This document shows, one piece after another, positions 34,676-54,219 of a stretch of 64,000 nucleotides of DNA; position 1 is the first letter of the stretch; every line of letters begins with the position of its first letter. The translations under genes and the position numbers were made by a program. Origin of the DNA: an uncultured Candidatus Rokubacteria bacterium (GTDB lineage Bacteria > Methylomirabilota > Methylomirabilia > Rokubacteriales > CSP1-6); NCBI GenBank assembly GCA_963827505.1, contig CAWHBD010000002.1, positions 393,692-457,691 on the forward strand. The letters run 5' to 3'. The notes under the pieces were generated by a model, which saw nothing but the letters and a program-made list of their open reading frames with translations, was not told the origin of the DNA and searched no databases.

Positions 34676-36020
34676 CTAGGCGGCGGGCGAGACCGCTCCC
34701 ACCAGCCAGCGTGCGGTGCGCAGGAGACGCGCATCGCCGTGGCGAGGCCCGACGAGCTGGACACCGAGCGGCAGGCCGTTAGCGCCGCGCATGATGGGCA
34801 CGCTGATGGCGGGCATCCCGGCGAGCGTCCACAGCGCGCAGAAGGCCGGATCGCCGGTCGAGTCGAGTCCCGCCGGCGCCGTGCCGGGGGCGGCCGGGGT
34901 CAGGATGGCGTCGTAACGCTGCTCGAACAGCTCCGTGAAGCTCGCCTGCAGCTCGGGGATGCGGGCCAGCGCGCGCAGGTAGTGGGGGGCGCGCACCTCG
35001 TGGCCGCGCTCGATGCTGGCCCGCAGCGAGTTCGACAGCCCCGCCCGTCCGGTCCGCCATTCCCGGTCGAGGTTCACCGCCAGCTCGGCGTTCATGATGG
35101 TGCGATGCCACTCGGCCGTCTCCGCGGCCGGCCTCACCAGCTCCACCTCCTCTAGGCGATCGCCGAGCACGGCGGCCAGCTCCTCGAAGGCCTCGCGGGC
35201 GTCGGGGTCGACCGCGTCCCACATCGTCGTCTTCACGAAAGCGAACATCGGCGGCAGCGGGGGCTCCTCGCCAGCGAGCTGCCGGTAGGGCACACGCGCG
35301 CGTGGCCGGGTGTCGGGATCACGCTCGTCGTGGCCGGCCAGCTGCTCCAGTAAGCAGAGCGAGATCGTCGATGGAGCGCGCGAACAGCCCCACGTGATCC
35401 AGCGTGCGCGAGAGCTGGAACATGCCGTGGCGCGGAATCAGCCCGTGGGTCGGCTTGAGGCCGTACACGCCGCAGTAGGAGGCGGGCCGGATGGTGGAGC
35501 CGCCGGTCTGGCTGCCGAGCGCCAGCGGGACCATGCCCGCCGCCACCGCCGCCGCCGAGCCGCTCGACGATCCACCCGGCGTGTGGGCCGGGTCGTGCGG
35601 GTTGCGCGTCTTGCCCGGCTGTCGCGTCGCGAACTCCGTGGTCACCGTCTTGCCCAGGATGACCGCGCCCGCCCCCCGCAGCATCGCCGTCACGCTCGCG
35701 TCCCGGGAAGGCGTCCGGCCGGCGTGCAGCACCGAGCCGTTCTCGGTCGGCATGTCGGCGGTGTCGATGATGTCCTTCAAGGCCACCGGCACGCCGTGCA
35801 GCGGCCCGATCACTCGGCCCGACATCCGCGCCTCGTCCGCCGCCCTCGCCTGCCCCAGCGCCAGCTCCGGGTCCAGGAAGGTCCACGCCTCGACGTCCCG
35901 ATCGACGGCCCGGATGCGCGCCAGGCACGCCTCGACCAGCTGCTCCGAGCTGATCACCCCATCCCGAATCAGCCGCGCCCCCTCCCCCGCCGACACCGCA
36001 TACAGATCCGTCAAATCCAT
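34676..36020 (-). pseudogene. Amidase (amidase-signature family, GatA-like), single frameshift near 35325-35345
   Basis: N-terminal 233 aa intact, including the GGSSSGSAAAVAAG signature and VPVALKDII. The C-terminal 200 aa sit in the other frame (…GLPLGVQLVGPRHGDARLL). A 1-nt indel at ...IDDLALL|LEQLAGHDERDP. Confidence 0.6.
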
Positions 36021-36150
36021 CCCACCACCCCCTCCTCCCCATTGGCTCCACGCCCAGCACCCACGTGCCCGCGTAATCCTAGCCCAGGACGACGTCAGCC
36101 GGCGTCTCTCGCCCCTCCGCCAACAACCCTTATCAGCGAGACGGTCTGAT

Positions 36151-36267
36151 CAACCGCGCTCGAGCGCGGGCTTCGCCCGCGCAATCCGGTCCGAGGGGGA
36201 GGCAGGAAGGAGCGCGACGCCAGTCGCGCGACGACCGCCGGAAGGGGGACGAAGTCCCCCTCCGGGC
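36151..36267 (-). repeat. Structured repeat, family 2, copy A (minus orientation), starting at the dctM stop codon
   Basis: On the minus strand: TAG-CCCGGAGGGGGACTTCGTCCCCCTTCCGGCGGTCGTCGCGCGACTGGCGTCGCGCTCCTTCCTGCCTCCCCCT...GCGCGGGCGAAGCCCGCGCTCGAGCGCGGTTG. Three hairpins (GGGGGAC/GTCCCCC; GCGCGAC/GTCGCGC; GCGCGGG-cgaa-CCCGCGC containing the GCGAAGC mini-hairpin) plus a CU-rich tract CUCCUUCCUGCCUCCCCCU. About 85% identical to 53897-54018. Confidence 0.65.
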
Positions 36268-38301
36268 TACTTCCCGTAGAGAAACTCCGGCAGCCACAGC
36301 GTCATGCCCGGCCACACGTGCATGAAGACGAGACACACGACCACGATGATCATGTACGGCATCATGCCCGCGAAGATCTGGTTGAGCGTGACGTGCTTGG
36401 GGGCCACTCCCTTCAGGTAGAACGCCGACATCGCCACCGGCGGCGACAGGAACGCGGCCTGCAGGTTGACCGCGACCATGGTGCCGAAGAGCAGCGGATC
36501 GATCTGGAAGTGGGTCAGCAAGGGGATGAAGATCGGACAGAAGATGACGATGATCTCGGTCCACTCCAGCGGCCAGCCGAGCAGGAAGATGATGAGCTGG
36601 GCGATGATCGTGAACCCCAGCGGGCGACAGGTTCAGGCCGAGCACCCAGCGCTCGATGAGCGACTGGCCCCCGTGCAGGGCGAACACGGCGGAGAAGAGG
36701 GCGGAGCCGACGAAGAGCCAGCACACCATCGCCGTCGTCTTGGCGGTGAGGAAGGTCGACTGCTTGAGGTTCTCGCGGAGCTCGGGGGAGTCCCGCAGGT
36801 GCCACAGGCCCGGCACGACGGTGCCCAGGAACGTCCCGCCGATCGAGCCGGCCACCAGCAGCGAGGCCAGCGTCTCTTCCTGCCACCAGCCGAGCGTGAC
36901 CCCGACCACGAACCCGACCAGGCTCCACCACCAGACCTGGCGCGGGTAGCGCGCCATCACCGCCAGGTAGAGCGCGCCGAGGGCGCCGATGGCGGCCGAC
37001 TCCGTCGCGGTGCAGATGCCGAACAGGATCACCGCCAGCACCACCGCGGTGAGCACGCCGAGCGGCACGACCGAGACGATCAGCTCCTTGAGGATCTCGA
37101 GCTGCTCGCCGTCCATCCGCCAGAAGTAGACGGCGAGCAGGAGCCCCGAGAACGCCGCCAGCCCCCAGAACCAGGGATAGAAGTGCGCGGGCACCTTGCC
37201 GGCCGACGTCACCGCCGTGGCGTCCCGCAGCGACGTCATCTCCTCGGGTGGCCCCTCGGTTCGCGGTGAGCGCGCCGTGCTCTCCGACGAGGCCCCCGAC
37301 CCCAGCTCCTGCACGGGCTCAGCCTCCACGGCGGAGCCCAGCTCCTGCGGCTTGTCCTCGCCGGCGGCGACCGGCGCGGCGCGGCGGTGCCGGGGCAGCC
37401 GCGACGGGCCGTGGGCTCGGCGCCGGGGCGAGCTGCCGTGACCTCCGGGGCGTTGTAGACGACGACGTACCACCACGTCGCCCCGAAGGTGCCGGCCGTC
37501 GAGCAGGACGGGCACCGCCAGCGCGGCGACGTCCCGCGCGATCGCCCGGTAGCCGGCGCCGGCGGCCGCTCGGGCCGGCCGAAGGGCGGCGCCGAGGAGC
37601 CCGGGCACGATGCGGCCCGAGCGCCCGCGCTCCAGCGCGGCCAGGTAGGCCGGCACCGCGACGCGATACTGGTCGGGCGCCAGCTTGGGGGCGATCTTCG
37701 GGTTGATGATCGCCCAGCCCAGGATGTAGACGAGGTAGAGGAACGTCAGGAAGAAGCCCGGCAGCATCGCCGCCGCGTACAGCTTGACGATCGACTGGCC
37801 GGCCACCGCCGCGTAGACGATCAGCATGACCGAGGGGGGGATCAGGATGCCCAGCGTGCCCCCCGCGGTGATGGCCCCCGAGGCCAGCCGGATGTCGTAG
37901 CCCGCCTTGAGCATCGGCCGCAGGGCGATGACGCCCATGAGCACGACGACGGCCCCGACGATGCCGGAGGCGATGCCCCAGAAGGCGCACACCAGCAGCG
38001 TCGTCACCGCCAGCGAGGCCGGCACGCGGCGGAAGGCGAGCTGGACGCTGTGGAACATGCGGTCGACCAGCGCCGCCCGCTCCATGATGTAGCCCATGAA
38101 GACGAACAGCGGGACCGACAGCAGGGTGTCGTTGGTCATCACCCCGTAGGTGCGCTGGGCGATGAGGTCGAAGATCCGGTTGTCGTACCAGTGGGCCCCG
38201 GGCACCCAGAACGCGATGAACCCGAAGACCATGCCGAGGCCCATCAGCGTGAACGCGGTCGGGTAGCCCATCATGATGGCGACCACGATGAGTCCCAGCA
38301 T
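36267..38301 (-). pseudogene. dctM: TRAP transporter large permease DctM, one frameshift near 36590-36610; possible ~150-aa low-complexity insert
   Basis: N-terminus MLGLIVVAIMMGYPTAFTLMGLGMVFGFIAF...; central FYPWFWGLAAFSGLLLAVYFWRMDGEQLEILKELIVSVVPLGVLTAVVLAVILFGICTATESAAIGALGALYLAV; C-terminus in another frame (LTHFQIDPLLFGTMVAVNLQAAFLSPPVAMSAFYLKGVAPKHVTLNQIFAGMMPYMIIVVVCLVFMHVWPGMTLWLPEFLYGK-stop). Confidence 0.6.
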
Positions 38302-38325
38302 CGATGAGACCGAGCGAGGGATCGC

Positions 38326-52987: not shown

Positions 52988-53898
52988 GTGGCCATCGGTT
53001 CCCTGCCCTCCTCCACGCTCGCCTACGCCGACGAGGTCCGGCCGGCCGCCGGCGCCTCTCGCGCGTGGCGCAAGTTCGCGCGCAACCCGGCCGCCCTGGT
53101 CGGCGCGCTCATCCTCGCGATCGTGGTCGGGGCGGCGCTGGCGCGCGCCGTGGATCGCGCCCCACGACCCGGCCAAGCAGAGCCTGATCCGGCGGTTCAC
53201 ACCTCCGGTGTGGGCGGCGGGCGGCAACCCGACCTACCTGCTCGGCACCGATCAGGTCGGACGCGACATCCTGAGCCGCATCATCCACGGCGCCCGCATC
53301 TCGCTGCTCGTCGGTGTGCTGGCGGTCATCGTCAGCGTGCTGGTCGGGGTGACGCTGGGGCTCGTCAGCGGGTTCGTGGGCGGGCGCGTGGACACCGTGC
53401 TCATGACGATCGTCGACATCACGCTGTCGTTCCCGCAGATCCTCCTGGCCCTGGCCTTCGTGGCCGCGCTGGGCCCGAGCCTCGTCACGATCATCGCTCG
53501 TGCTGGGCCTGACGGGCTGGGAGCGCTACGCGCGGGTGGTCCGGGCCGAGGTGCTGGCCCTGCGCGAGAAGGACTTCGTCGAGGCGGCGCGAGCGCTCGG
53601 CATCGGCGCCCCCCGGATCCTGCTGCGCCACGTCCTGCCCAACACGTTCTCGTCGATCGTGGTGCTGTCGACGCTGCAGGTCGCCCAGGCCATCCTGCAG
53701 GAGGCGGCGCTGTCGTTCCTCGGCGTGGGCTCGGGCCGGAGCTACCCGACGTGGGGCCAGATGATCGCGCTCGGCCGGGACTTCGTCAGCGTGGCCTGGT
53801 GGCTGCCGACCTTCCCGGGCCTGGCCATCCTGGCCACGGTGCTGGCCATCAACCTCGTCGGCGACCGGCTCCGCGACGCGGTGGATCCAAGAATTTAG
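52988..53898 (+). pseudogene. ABC peptide transporter permease (DppC/OppC-like), 2 frameshifts near 53145 and 53500
   Basis: MAIGSLPSSTLAYADEVRPAAGASRAWRKFARNPAALVGALILAIVVGAALA | PWIAPHDPAKQSLIRRFTPPVWAAGGNPTYLLGTDQVGRDILSRIIHGARISLLVGVLAVIVSVLVGVTLGLVSGFVGGRVDTVLMTIVDITLSFPQILLALAFVAALGPSLVTII | VLGLTGWERYARVVRAEVLALREKDFVEAARALGIGAPRILLRHVLPNTFSSIVVLSTLQVAQAILQEAALSFLGVGSGRSYPTWGQMIALGRDFVSVAWWLPTFPGLAILATVLAINLVGDRLRDAVDPRI-stop. Confidence 0.6.
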
Positions 53899-54018
53899 CT
53901 CGGAGGGGACTCGTCCCCCTTCCGACGGTCGTCGCGCGCCTTTCGGCGCGCTCCTTCCTGCCTCCCCCTAGCTCCAAAAACAGGATGGCGCGGGCGAAGC
54001 CCGCGCTCGAAAGCGTTG
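53897..54018 (+). repeat. Structured repeat, family 2, copy B (plus orientation), starting at the stop codon of the last dpp permease gene
   Basis: TAG-CTCGGAGGGGACTCGTCCCCCTTCCGACGGTCGTCGCGCGCCTTTCGGCGCGCTCCTTCCTGCCTCCCCCTAGCTCCAAAAACAGGATGGCGCGGGCGAAGCCCGCGCTCGA. Same three hairpins as copy A, with compensatory change in hairpin 2 (GCGCGCC/GGCGCGC here vs GCGCGAC/GTCGCGC in copy A). Confidence 0.65.
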
Positions 54019-54030
54019 TATCATTCCGTC

Positions 54031-54219
54031 ATGCCAGCGAAGGTTCCTTGGTTGCCGTCGCAGTTGCCGCCGGGGGCGAGGCCGGAGAAGTGTCCGCGGT
54101 GCGGGAAGGCGGGGTTCATTCCGTGGACATTGCGGCGCGACGATCAGAGCAAGGTCGTCATGCGCACCTGGGTCTGCACGGAATGCCAGCTCACCCAGGA
54201 GCGCCCCGAGCCCGAGTAG
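54031..54219 (+). CDS. Small zinc-ribbon protein (62 aa, two CxxC pairs)
   Basis: MPAKVPWLPSQLPPGARPEKCPRCGKAGFIPWTLRRDDQSKVVMRTWVCTECQLTQERPEPE. CPRC...CTEC zinc-ribbon spacing, GC3-rich codons. Begins 13 nt after repeat copy B. The track's 54016 start is a TTG and is less likely. Confidence 0.4.
   Translation: MPAKVPWLPSQLPPGARPEKCPRCGKAGFIPWTLRRDDQSKVVMRTWVCTECQLTQERPEPE

Follow-up and report, generated by a model that had tools for sequence, protein, structure and literature searches.

A family of three-hairpin repeats mostly placed just behind stop codons in Rokubacteria, probably a REP- or RPE-like DNA element

In the 64,000-nucleotide stretch of an uncultured Candidatus Rokubacteria genome analyzed in this work (assembly GCA_963827505.1, contig CAWHBD010000002.1, positions 393,692 to 457,691 of the forward strand; hereafter the window), a short sequence folding into three hairpins lies on the minus strand between dctM and an amidase gene. 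The first-pass annotation, made from the letters of the window, had recognized it as one of two related copies (copy A behind dctM, copy B elsewhere in the window) and regarded it as a structural RNA rather than neutral DNA. The question that this locus raises is whether its hairpins belong to an RNA device kept by the host or to a DNA repeat that is transcribed with its neighbors. Our analysis points to the second: copy A is a member of an undescribed family of three-hairpin repeats, which is probably, though by no means certainly, mobile or recombining DNA related in kind to the repetitive extragenic palindromic (REP) sequences and the Rickettsia palindromic elements (RPEs), and transcribed as the start of 3′ untranslated regions (UTRs). 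No member of the Rokubacteria, which are abundant in soil, has ever been cultured, and to our knowledge nothing is known about genome regulation in them. This work adds a well-defined family of structured repeats, with its covariance model, to a lineage that had none.

The dctM gene ends with the stop codon TAG (36267..36269, minus strand; the 113 C-terminal residues match Pfam DctM) and copy A (36159..36266, minus strand) starts at the very next base, 36266, with CCCGGAGGGGG; the absence of any gap agrees with the initial description. The covariance model R1 matches copy A over all of its 108 positions (119.3 bits, E=5.6e-22). On the minus strand, the copy comprises: (i) hairpin 1 (36238..36265; CCGGAGGGGGAC-TTC-GTCCCCC(T)TCCGG), of 12 bp with one bulged T and a GGAGG within its 5′ arm, (ii) the conserved unpaired linker CGGTCGTC (36230..36237), (iii) hairpin 2 (36212..36229; GCGCGAC-TGGC-GTCGCGC), of 7 bp, the sixth pair being A:T, (iv) the unpaired pyrimidine (CU-rich) tract TCCTTCCTGCCTCCCCCT (36194..36211), (v) a variable spacer ending in a semi-conserved GGATT (36183..36193), whose length ranges from 0 to about 50 nt across copies, and (vi) hairpin 3 (36164..36182; GCGCGGGC-GAA-GCCCGCGC), of 8 bp. 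A 3′ tail follows (36147..36163; TCGAG and CGCGGTTGATCA), in which TCGA(A) is conserved; its GCGGTTGATCA portion is found only in a subset of copies, so that the 3′ boundary of the repeat is fuzzy. The linker is invariant in alignment A1; in alignment A3 it is part of the search anchor, and its conservation there is not an independent test. The predicted energies of the three hairpins of copy A (-22.8 kcal/mol with z=-4.3 for hairpin 1, -13.4 for hairpin 2 and -16.2 for hairpin 3) are all far better than those of shuffled controls, and that of hairpin 1 ranges from -22.8 to -23.5 kcal/mol. The ATG of the amidase gene (Pfam Amidase) is found at 36020, 138 nt beyond the end of copy A, close to the 130 nt announced. 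From the end of dctM to the start of the amidase gene, the window is identical to contig_14354 of ENA ERZ25039547 over the region compared.

Copy B (53899..54011, plus strand; 108.4 bits, E=7.6e-20) likewise begins at the base that follows a TAG stop codon, that of an ABC-permease gene (53896..53898, plus strand; Pfam BPD_transp_1). Its hairpin 1 is located at about 53900-53925, its hairpin 2 at 53934-53951, its CU tract at 53952-53969 and its hairpin 3 at 53988-54006. A blastn comparison of the copy A stretch with the window retrieved it as the sole relative (53896-54051, plus strand), and a direct-repeat search missed this copy, which is in opposite orientation and has indels; beyond these two copies, the best score of the covariance model in the window is 12 bits. 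The two copies are 18 kb apart, in opposite orientations, and both lie within ordinary transporter operons. Hairpin 2 of copy B reads GCGCGCC-TTTC-GGCGCGC, and the change from its C:G pair to the A:T pair of copy A (GCGCGAC/GTCGCGC versus GCGCGCC/GGCGCGC) is compensated, as had been noticed at first pass; the resemblance of the two copies goes far past what chance would give. This A:T pair is peculiar to copy A among the about 140 copies listed, the others having C:G or, in 7-8 copies, G:C. Hairpin 1 is also conserved between the two copies, with a second compensated change at its base (C:G in copy A, T:A in copy B), and hairpin 3 and the tract TCCTTCCTGCCTCCCCCT are identical in both. A model-guided, hand-counted alignment gives 97 matches, 11 mismatches and 9 gap positions, i.e., an identity of about 83% with gaps and 90% without, which brackets the 85% first estimated. 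Indels had been said to be confined to loops and linkers; they are found in the loop of hairpin 1, one base shorter in copy B, in the linker before hairpin 3 and in the G-run of hairpin 1, one G shorter in copy B. Such single-base details may be errors, because genes of the window show frame changes (described at the end of this text).

Base-pair covariation was then evaluated in three sets of copies, bearing in mind that cell counts are not counts of independent events and that alignments fitted to a model lean towards the structure of this model. Paired stem cells amount to 94.9% in 31 genome copies (both-side changes at 7 pairs), 97.4% in 40 model-aligned copies (9 pairs) and 97.1% in 100 metagenome copies (22 of the 27 pairs, 150 cells). 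In this last set, partners slid along the alignment pair in 42-62% of cases (about 50%), and none of 500 shuffles reached the observed values. Hairpin 1 is paired in 98% of cells, with both-side changes in 11 of its 12 pairs; the pair at its base is U:A in 69 copies and C:G in 20, and an inner pair is G:C in 65, A:U in 20 and C:G in 4. Hairpin 3 reaches 98.3%, with C:G and G:C swapped at two pairs (in 14 and 31-33 copies). Hairpin 2, whose covariation over aligned copies had been proposed as the check, has both-side changes in six of its seven pairs: one pair is G:C in 61 copies and A:U in 20, and another C:G in 85 and G:C in 7-8. It is also the helix with the lowest pairing (93.7%), one of its pairs being a C·A mismatch in 15 of 94 scored copies; the uncompensated hairpin 2 changes that had been named as refuting evidence are thus only weakly present, and compensation dominates. 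Overall, the hairpins of this family are maintained by compensatory change. Conservation is not limited to stems: among copies that were not selected by the tract, 17 of the 18 positions of CTCC(T/C)CCTGCCTCCCCC are conserved at 94% or more, the other being the C/T site, and GGATT before hairpin 3 and TCGA after it are conserved too. Free variation is found in the loops and between the CU tract and GGATT.

Such a pattern of compensated hairpins is also what palindromic DNA repeats of the REP or RPE type produce. The initial contrast between structural RNA and neutral DNA therefore holds in its second term, since the hairpins are real and selected; structural RNA is not the sole reading of them, and the evidence favors a mobile repeat. 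The balance of non-canonical pairs may bear on the same point: the sense strand has 14 G·U pairs against 34 A·C pairs (19 A·C when one recurrent hairpin 2 pair, with 15 A·C, is left out), so that these counts do not display the G·U excess that usually marks selection on a sense-strand RNA.

The repeat unit is about 105-125 nt long (108 model positions) and keeps the same order throughout: a 12-bp G/C hairpin 1, the linker CGGTCGTC, a 7-bp hairpin 2, the 18-nt pyrimidine tract CTCC(T/C)CCTGCCTCCCCC, a spacer whose length varies and whose last bases are GGATT, hairpin 3 of 8 bp and TCGAA. About 140 copies were recovered among the matches listed, nearly all from genome bins of Rokubacteria or Methylomirabilota and from soil metagenomes. 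When one genome per species was scanned for exact matches to the 17-nt pyrimidine tract, 90 loci came out, of which about 38 are true copies. Nearly all of these belong to bins that bear the label Rokubacteria, Rokuibacteriota or Methylomirabilota; the few copies found in soil bins labelled otherwise are surrounded by genes orthologous to those of Rokubacteria loci. A scan of metagenomes anchored on the 3′ arm of hairpin 1 and the linker revealed at least 120 loci, mostly from soil samples, and the covariance model recovers the element in essentially all of them. The density is estimated at about 10 copies per Mb; some 10 further copies found within about 1 Mb of flanking DNA suggest tens of copies per genome. 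The repeat could be used in soil metagenomes to mark the 3′ ends of genes and to detect mis-binned contigs. Rfam 15 gave no match in the window at gathering thresholds and none for the element at relaxed E-values, the best scores being sub-threshold (Proteo-phage-1, 19.7 bits for a threshold of 42; CcsR1, 10.9 bits for a threshold of 65.3). A search of a plasmid collection found no match to the repeat, and a search of the literature found no paper tying Rokubacteria to repeats or small RNAs and none describing the element. Six IMG/VR contigs classed as viral (loci L217-L222 in our numbering) carry the 19-nt anchor of the repeat; they may be proviruses of Rokubacteria or wrongly classified contigs.

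The position of the copies relative to genes is highly regular. The element lies 0-6 nt past a co-oriented stop codon in 98 of 108 scorable copies (91%), the distance being 0 nt in 41 copies, 1 nt in 22, 2 nt in 9, 3 nt in 8, 4 nt in 12, 5 nt in 2 and 6 nt in 4. Read-through coding in frame with the upstream gene can be ruled out, since distances of 0, 1, 2, 3 and 4 nt all occur and no frame is preserved. The upstream genes end with more than 60 different C-terminal peptides, the commonest being those of dctM, of several ABC permeases and of about 12 other recurrent families. About 93% of the copies are in sense orientation; one copy lies 4 nt past a tRNA-Pro gene, and an open reading frame (ORF) runs into the element in a few loci (L037, L121, L124, L193 and L128). 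Downstream, the 32 resolved contexts consist of 24 co-directional genes starting 20-140 nt further on and eight convergent genes whose stop codon is 10-28 nt away, and no copy was found in divergent, promoter-containing spacers among the copies scored. The adjoining stop codons are TAA in 22% and TGA in 37% of cases, against 5% and 61% for the other genes of these loci; where the dctM site lacks the element, the stop codon is TGA, and where the site is filled, it is mostly TAG or TAA. In the 15 nt upstream of the element, no conserved motif is found besides stop codons at variable offsets, and a TA or TRR target site was rejected because the flanks are not conserved. Near-exact placement at stop codons together with near-uniform orientation makes this family a good system to study how intergenic repeats choose their sites.

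These regularities invite an RNA explanation, namely a dedicated cis-acting device of the 3′ UTR, selected by the host and kept by this selection rather than by mobility, whose hairpin 1 would be opened by the terminating ribosome. Such a device would make the stability of the mRNA, the access of Rho or the expression of the next gene depend on whether the upstream ORF has been completed. In its favor, 91% of the copies are 0-6 nt past a co-oriented stop codon, the unpaired tract is conserved as well as the stems, the element is kept after dctM in many species, and the adjoining stops are shifted to TAA and TAG, as expected from selection against read-through of UGA-C followed by a hairpin. 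The avoidance of TGA beside the element is compatible with such selection. We nevertheless consider this explanation unlikely. About one quarter of the copies lie between convergent genes, where there is no downstream gene to regulate, and the existence of antisense copies, of an in-gene copy, of a copy past a tRNA gene and of empty orthologous sites does not fit well with a device of this kind. Furthermore, the end of the element carrying hairpin 1 is equally tight at start codons of the opposite strand, which points to a property of the DNA.

The comparison of loci reveals that the family spreads and turns over as DNA, by gain and loss, duplication, deletion and replacement of alleles, and that some copies are antisense or within a gene. 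Orthologous dctM-amidase junctions devoid of the element are found in L212, with a spacer of 8 nt, and in L214 and L215, with unrelated spacers of 50-58 nt. In about 10% of the loci, a 17-28 nt fragment of the 5′ end of the element immediately precedes a full copy, and in L210, L165 and L138 this fragment comes from a different subfamily than the adjoining full copy. Tandems made of an 81-nt truncated copy and a full copy, extra hairpin 3 modules and short forms devoid of hairpin 2 also occur; truncated copies always retain the hairpin 1 end. Three independent loci have the element in antisense orientation relative to the operon, next to genes encoding Era, a BcrAD_BadFG ATPase and the beta-subunit of a hydro-lyase, its hairpin 1 end being 0-7 nt from the start codon. 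The tight junction is thus always at the hairpin 1 end, whatever the polarity of the neighboring gene, suggesting a property of the DNA element and not of the ribosome. In L196 (about 590-960) and L204 (about 2350-2720), the element is inserted antisense and in frame within the BcrAD_BadFG ATPase gene, an in-gene insertion that concerns one locus out of about 70. It adds 39-47 residues read from the reverse complement (…ERGLRPR.PSWGEAGRSTPQACDDRRKGGEAPLRV…) without closing the ORF, which remains open over 784 aa in L204. Outside the insert, the protein is a close match to orthologues that have no interruption, along about 180 aligned residues; the orthologues of L165 and L184 lack the insert and have instead a copy of the repeat abutting their start codon.

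Pairs of nearly identical loci carry different alleles of the element. L008 and L078 are 100% identical over 200 nt upstream and 250 nt downstream and differ at about 16 positions grouped in one patch, which takes in the last three codons of dctM with its stop codon, the first two hairpins and the spacer; the same pattern is displayed by L114 and L166. In both pairs (flanks 99-100% identical), the last ~10 nt of the gene differ synonymously, and no difference is found in the CU tract, in hairpin 3 or in the DNA further downstream. The stop codon appears to travel with the element when alleles are exchanged. Moreover, the identity between elements of orthologous loci (77-94%) is comparable to that between elements of unrelated loci (83.5±4.8%) and is independent of the divergence of the flanks. 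Taken together, the empty sites, fragments, antisense and in-gene copies, allele patches and this pattern of identity indicate dispersal, turnover and exchange, unlike the slow vertical evolution of an RNA gene.

Several observations weigh against interpreting the family as mobile or recombining DNA. First, nearly all loci come from metagenome assemblies or bins, where repeats can be mis-assembled, and chimeric alleles can arise in this way. Second, at least 10 species-level genomes or contigs have kept the element between dctM and the amidase gene, and its sense bias (about 93%) and position bias are untypical of REP, ERIC, BOX and Correia elements; biases as extreme as these could be a sign of a selected RNA function. 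Third, the argument drawn from the hairpin 1 junction relies on only four independent antisense loci. Lastly, no transposase, REP-associated tyrosine transposase (RAYT) gene or reverse transcriptase linked to the family was noticed in the loci inspected, its ends (CTCGGAGG... and ...GCGCTCGAA) do not form terminal inverted repeats, neither the filled and empty dctM-amidase junctions nor the in-gene insertion show a target-site duplication, and no flanking tetranucleotide is conserved, so that no known transposition mechanism fits. Two candidate sources of mobility were also rejected: the hairpin 3 module is not an independent REP-like unit, since it has no true solo copies and is always preceded by a variant or deleted CU tract, and an autonomous version carrying a gene between the CU tract and hairpin 3 was not found, the only genes there being those of unrelated IS110-family insertions with their own ends.

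The hairpin 1 end is found near a stop codon and, more rarely, near a start codon of the opposite strand or the 3′ end of a tRNA gene. The repeat could thus be a mobile element whose insertion or exchange is coupled to gene ends or, alternatively, a sensor of ribosome termination spread by recombination, a proposal to which we give only a small chance of being right. Such coupling might come from copying primed at the left junction, e.g., by target-primed synthesis from an antisense template, or from insertion into single-stranded DNA exposed at sites where translation stops. We know of no bacterial repeat that uses either process.

The pyrimidine tract is itself a target of mobile DNA. In L117 (237-1387), L150 (about 1477-2620) and L105 (minus strand), i.e., behind three different host genes, an IS110-family insertion sequence of about 1.14 kb, whose transposase matches Pfam DEDD_Tnp_IS110 and Transposase_20, interrupts the tract at the same CT core, which is also present in copy A. 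The junctions read ...CTGC[CT]/TGTAT...ACAGTTG/[CT]CCCCC, the core being found on both sides. The 5′ non-coding end of this insertion sequence keeps: (i) CTGCCT, which matches the left half of the target, (ii) GCGGGGGAGC, the complement of its right half, and (iii) GGACAGTTGCCAGGG, which matches the right end of the insertion sequence itself. A mechanism guided by a bridge RNA is known from IS621, and these three conserved segments are what a bridge-RNA-guided IS110 recombinase would need; judging from sequence, this non-coding end looks like a putative bridge RNA programmed for the repeat. A search of Rfam with the non-coding end found no match. This insertion sequence and the pyrimidine tract would form a natural pair of a putative bridge RNA and its matching target, relevant to programmable recombinases. 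IS621 and ISPpu9/10 are known to target REPs, and being a target of the IS110 family is, by analogy, a further REP-like trait of the repeat. Two other structures were observed in contact with copies: another hairpin repeat (CCCCCTCTCCCC…GGGGAGAGGG.AGGGTGAGGGG), unrelated to the element, lies directly past it in L080 (after 1266, minus strand) and in L192 (after 6277), and in L140 (minus strand, about 4470), a small element with perfect 28-bp terminal inverted repeats (GGGTCAGGTCTTGAATTACGACATTTTG…) splits hairpin 2 of one copy.

Because about 93% of the copies are in sense orientation and touch a stop codon, the element would be transcribed as the first 110 nt of the 3′ UTR of the upstream gene, where an effect at the RNA level is likely by analogy with known repeats. 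Hairpins of REPs block 3′ exonucleases, and the three hairpins of the present repeat would probably do the same against 3′ to 5′ exonucleases. Hairpin 1 (about -23 kcal/mol, 12 bp), being 0-6 nt past the stop codon, should sit within the footprint of the terminating ribosome and probably slows termination or lowers the output of the upstream gene. This last expectation follows the REPs of Escherichia coli, which, according to a passage of PMC12306157 citing Liang et al. (2015), stall ribosomes and lower translation when fewer than 16 nt away from a stop codon. If hairpin 1 does affect termination or mRNA decay, dozens of transporter and metabolic operons per genome would be influenced.

What the repeat might do to transcription was considered as well. 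Copy A displays no terminator-like site, no U-tract and no sigma-70 promoter-like site; the bases behind hairpin 3 are UCGAA and those behind hairpin 1 are UUCCG, and an intrinsic (Rho-independent) terminator is ruled out by the lack of a U-run after either GC-rich hairpin. Another form of termination has been envisaged, in which the family would be a portable module whose C-rich, G-poor tract serves as a Rho loading (rut) site between hairpins, or a terminator without U-tract. The module would be well placed, since copies sit at gene ends, including convergent pairs (8 of the 32 resolved contexts) and the end of a tRNA gene, and are missing from the promoter-containing spacers between divergent genes; of the about 30 nt that run from the CU tract to GGATT, spacer included, roughly 18 are C and 4 are G. 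However, 24 of the 32 copies are in strings of co-directional genes with the next start 20-140 nt further on, where termination would have polar effects, typical rut sites are much longer than this tract, and there is no U-run, which makes this explanation very doubtful.

The same tract, which has CCUCC motifs and lies between hairpins 2 and 3, has the appearance of an anti-Shine-Dalgarno seed, and the 3′ UTR could release a trans-acting small RNA working in the manner of CcsR/cuckoo RNAs or RsaE. The succession of a hairpin, a single-stranded C-rich tract and a hairpin, the near-invariance of this tract and a weak, non-significant resemblance to CcsR1 (10.9 bits for a gathering score of 65) go in this direction. 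Against it stand the lack of a promoter-like site and of a U-tailed terminator, the tens of copies per genome in unrelated operons, whose expression would be unregulated and heterogeneous, the antisense and in-gene copies and an Rfam score far under threshold; we regard such a small RNA as highly improbable. In copy A, the tract is predicted, in both the minimum free energy and centroid structures, to pair with the G-rich ribosome-binding region of the amidase gene (35995..36045, minus strand, with the ATG at 36020; GGGGAGGAGGGGGUGGUGGG). This predicted helix of about 17 bp and -26.8 kcal/mol, the most extreme of 26 loci, would suit the cis-acting device discussed above. However, it is not general: the 26 genes adjacent to the element do not differ from 513 others (p=0.29), and the CU tract was therefore rejected as a general anti-Shine-Dalgarno partner.

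Among known systems, the family works most like REPs and bacterial interspersed mosaic elements (BIMEs) and, in one locus, like RPEs, as far as analogy goes. Since it departs from REPs in defining traits (it is no single short palindrome with a conserved head and does not form REPIN pairs) and is neither a miniature inverted-repeat transposable element (MITE), an attC site, an intrinsic terminator nor a member of an Rfam family, we class it among structured interspersed repeats. With the REPs and BIMEs of Enterobacteria and Pseudomonas, it shares a GC-rich, palindromic, multicopy nature, a location outside genes with transcription within operons and 3′ UTRs, hairpins kept by compensatory change, dispersal (about 140 copies after more than 60 genes among the matches listed) and insertions of IS110-family elements. 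A REP consists of one imperfect palindrome of 20-40 nt headed by a conserved tetranucleotide (GTAG or similar); such units often come in pairs, the REPINs, and are linked to RAYT genes, whereas the repeat is made of 108 nt with three unrelated hairpins and an invariant unpaired tract, lacks a head tetranucleotide, is rarely paired, has about 93% of its copies in one orientation and comes with no RAYT gene noticed in the loci inspected. The two also resemble each other in placement: REPs are often found no more than 15 nt from stop codons, where they lower upstream translation (PMC12306157, citing Liang 2015), and the repeat is 0-6 nt away in 98 of 108 copies. The RPEs of Rickettsia are, like the repeat, structured, about 100-150 nt long and able to sit in frame in genes and be translated; the repeat does so in only one locus, its great majority being intergenic at stop codons.

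Other elements offer partial parallels. Mycobacterial interspersed repetitive units (MIRUs), ERIC and BOX elements are, like the present one, intergenic repeats of operons, 40-130 nt long. MIRUs point the same way as the operon and abut the stop and start codons on either side, but they are tandem direct repeats that encode small peptides and are not based on hairpins. BOX elements are modular, as is the repeat, in which hairpin 3 can be duplicated and hairpin 2 lost; ERIC and BOX elements differ from it by occurring in both orientations without being anchored to stop codons. The attC sites of integrons (e.g., the Vibrio VCR) are about 60-140 nt long, conserved in structure, located directly past the end of an ORF of the same orientation, at its stop codon, and they recombine as folded single strands of DNA. 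However, they consist of one long imperfect hairpin with R″/R′ core sites (GTTRRRY) and form cassette arrays by an intI gene, unlike the three local hairpins of the repeat, found as dispersed single copies after housekeeping-type genes and in no array. The CcsR1/cuckoo-type CCUCCUCCC RNAs of Rfam combine a C/U-rich, anti-Shine-Dalgarno-like motif with hairpins as well, but this motif is in the hairpin loops of independently transcribed small RNAs, and the repeat is not a member (10.9 bits versus 65.3). A MITE, i.e., a non-autonomous DNA transposon, is ruled out by the lack of terminal inverted repeats and of target-site duplication.

Minor observations concern the surroundings of the copies. 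In a relative with lower GC content, the dctM-amidase spacer (L216:2537-2707) has the parts of the repeat in their usual order, namely a hairpin, then CGGTCGTCG, another hairpin and a CU-rich stretch; undetected by the covariance model, it may be a diverged or degenerate relative. In the window, the reading frame switches partway in dctM (about 36632), in the amidase gene (about 35437) and in the ABC-permease gene (about 53407). Either these switches are indels from the assembly of a long-read metagenome, or the genes are truly split or pseudogenes; the proteins recorded in databases for this dctM are likewise split, at about 195 aa. The frame of the TRAP large permease (36633-38325, minus strand) has two DctM-like halves separated by about 150 aa in which Arg, Pro, Ala and Glu abound, and gene calls on the source contig split the gene at this stretch. 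Lastly, a 62-aa zinc-ribbon ORF (54031-54219, plus strand) begins 20 nt past copy B, and its orthologue in L094 is itself trailed by a copy of the repeat, 4 nt past its stop codon.

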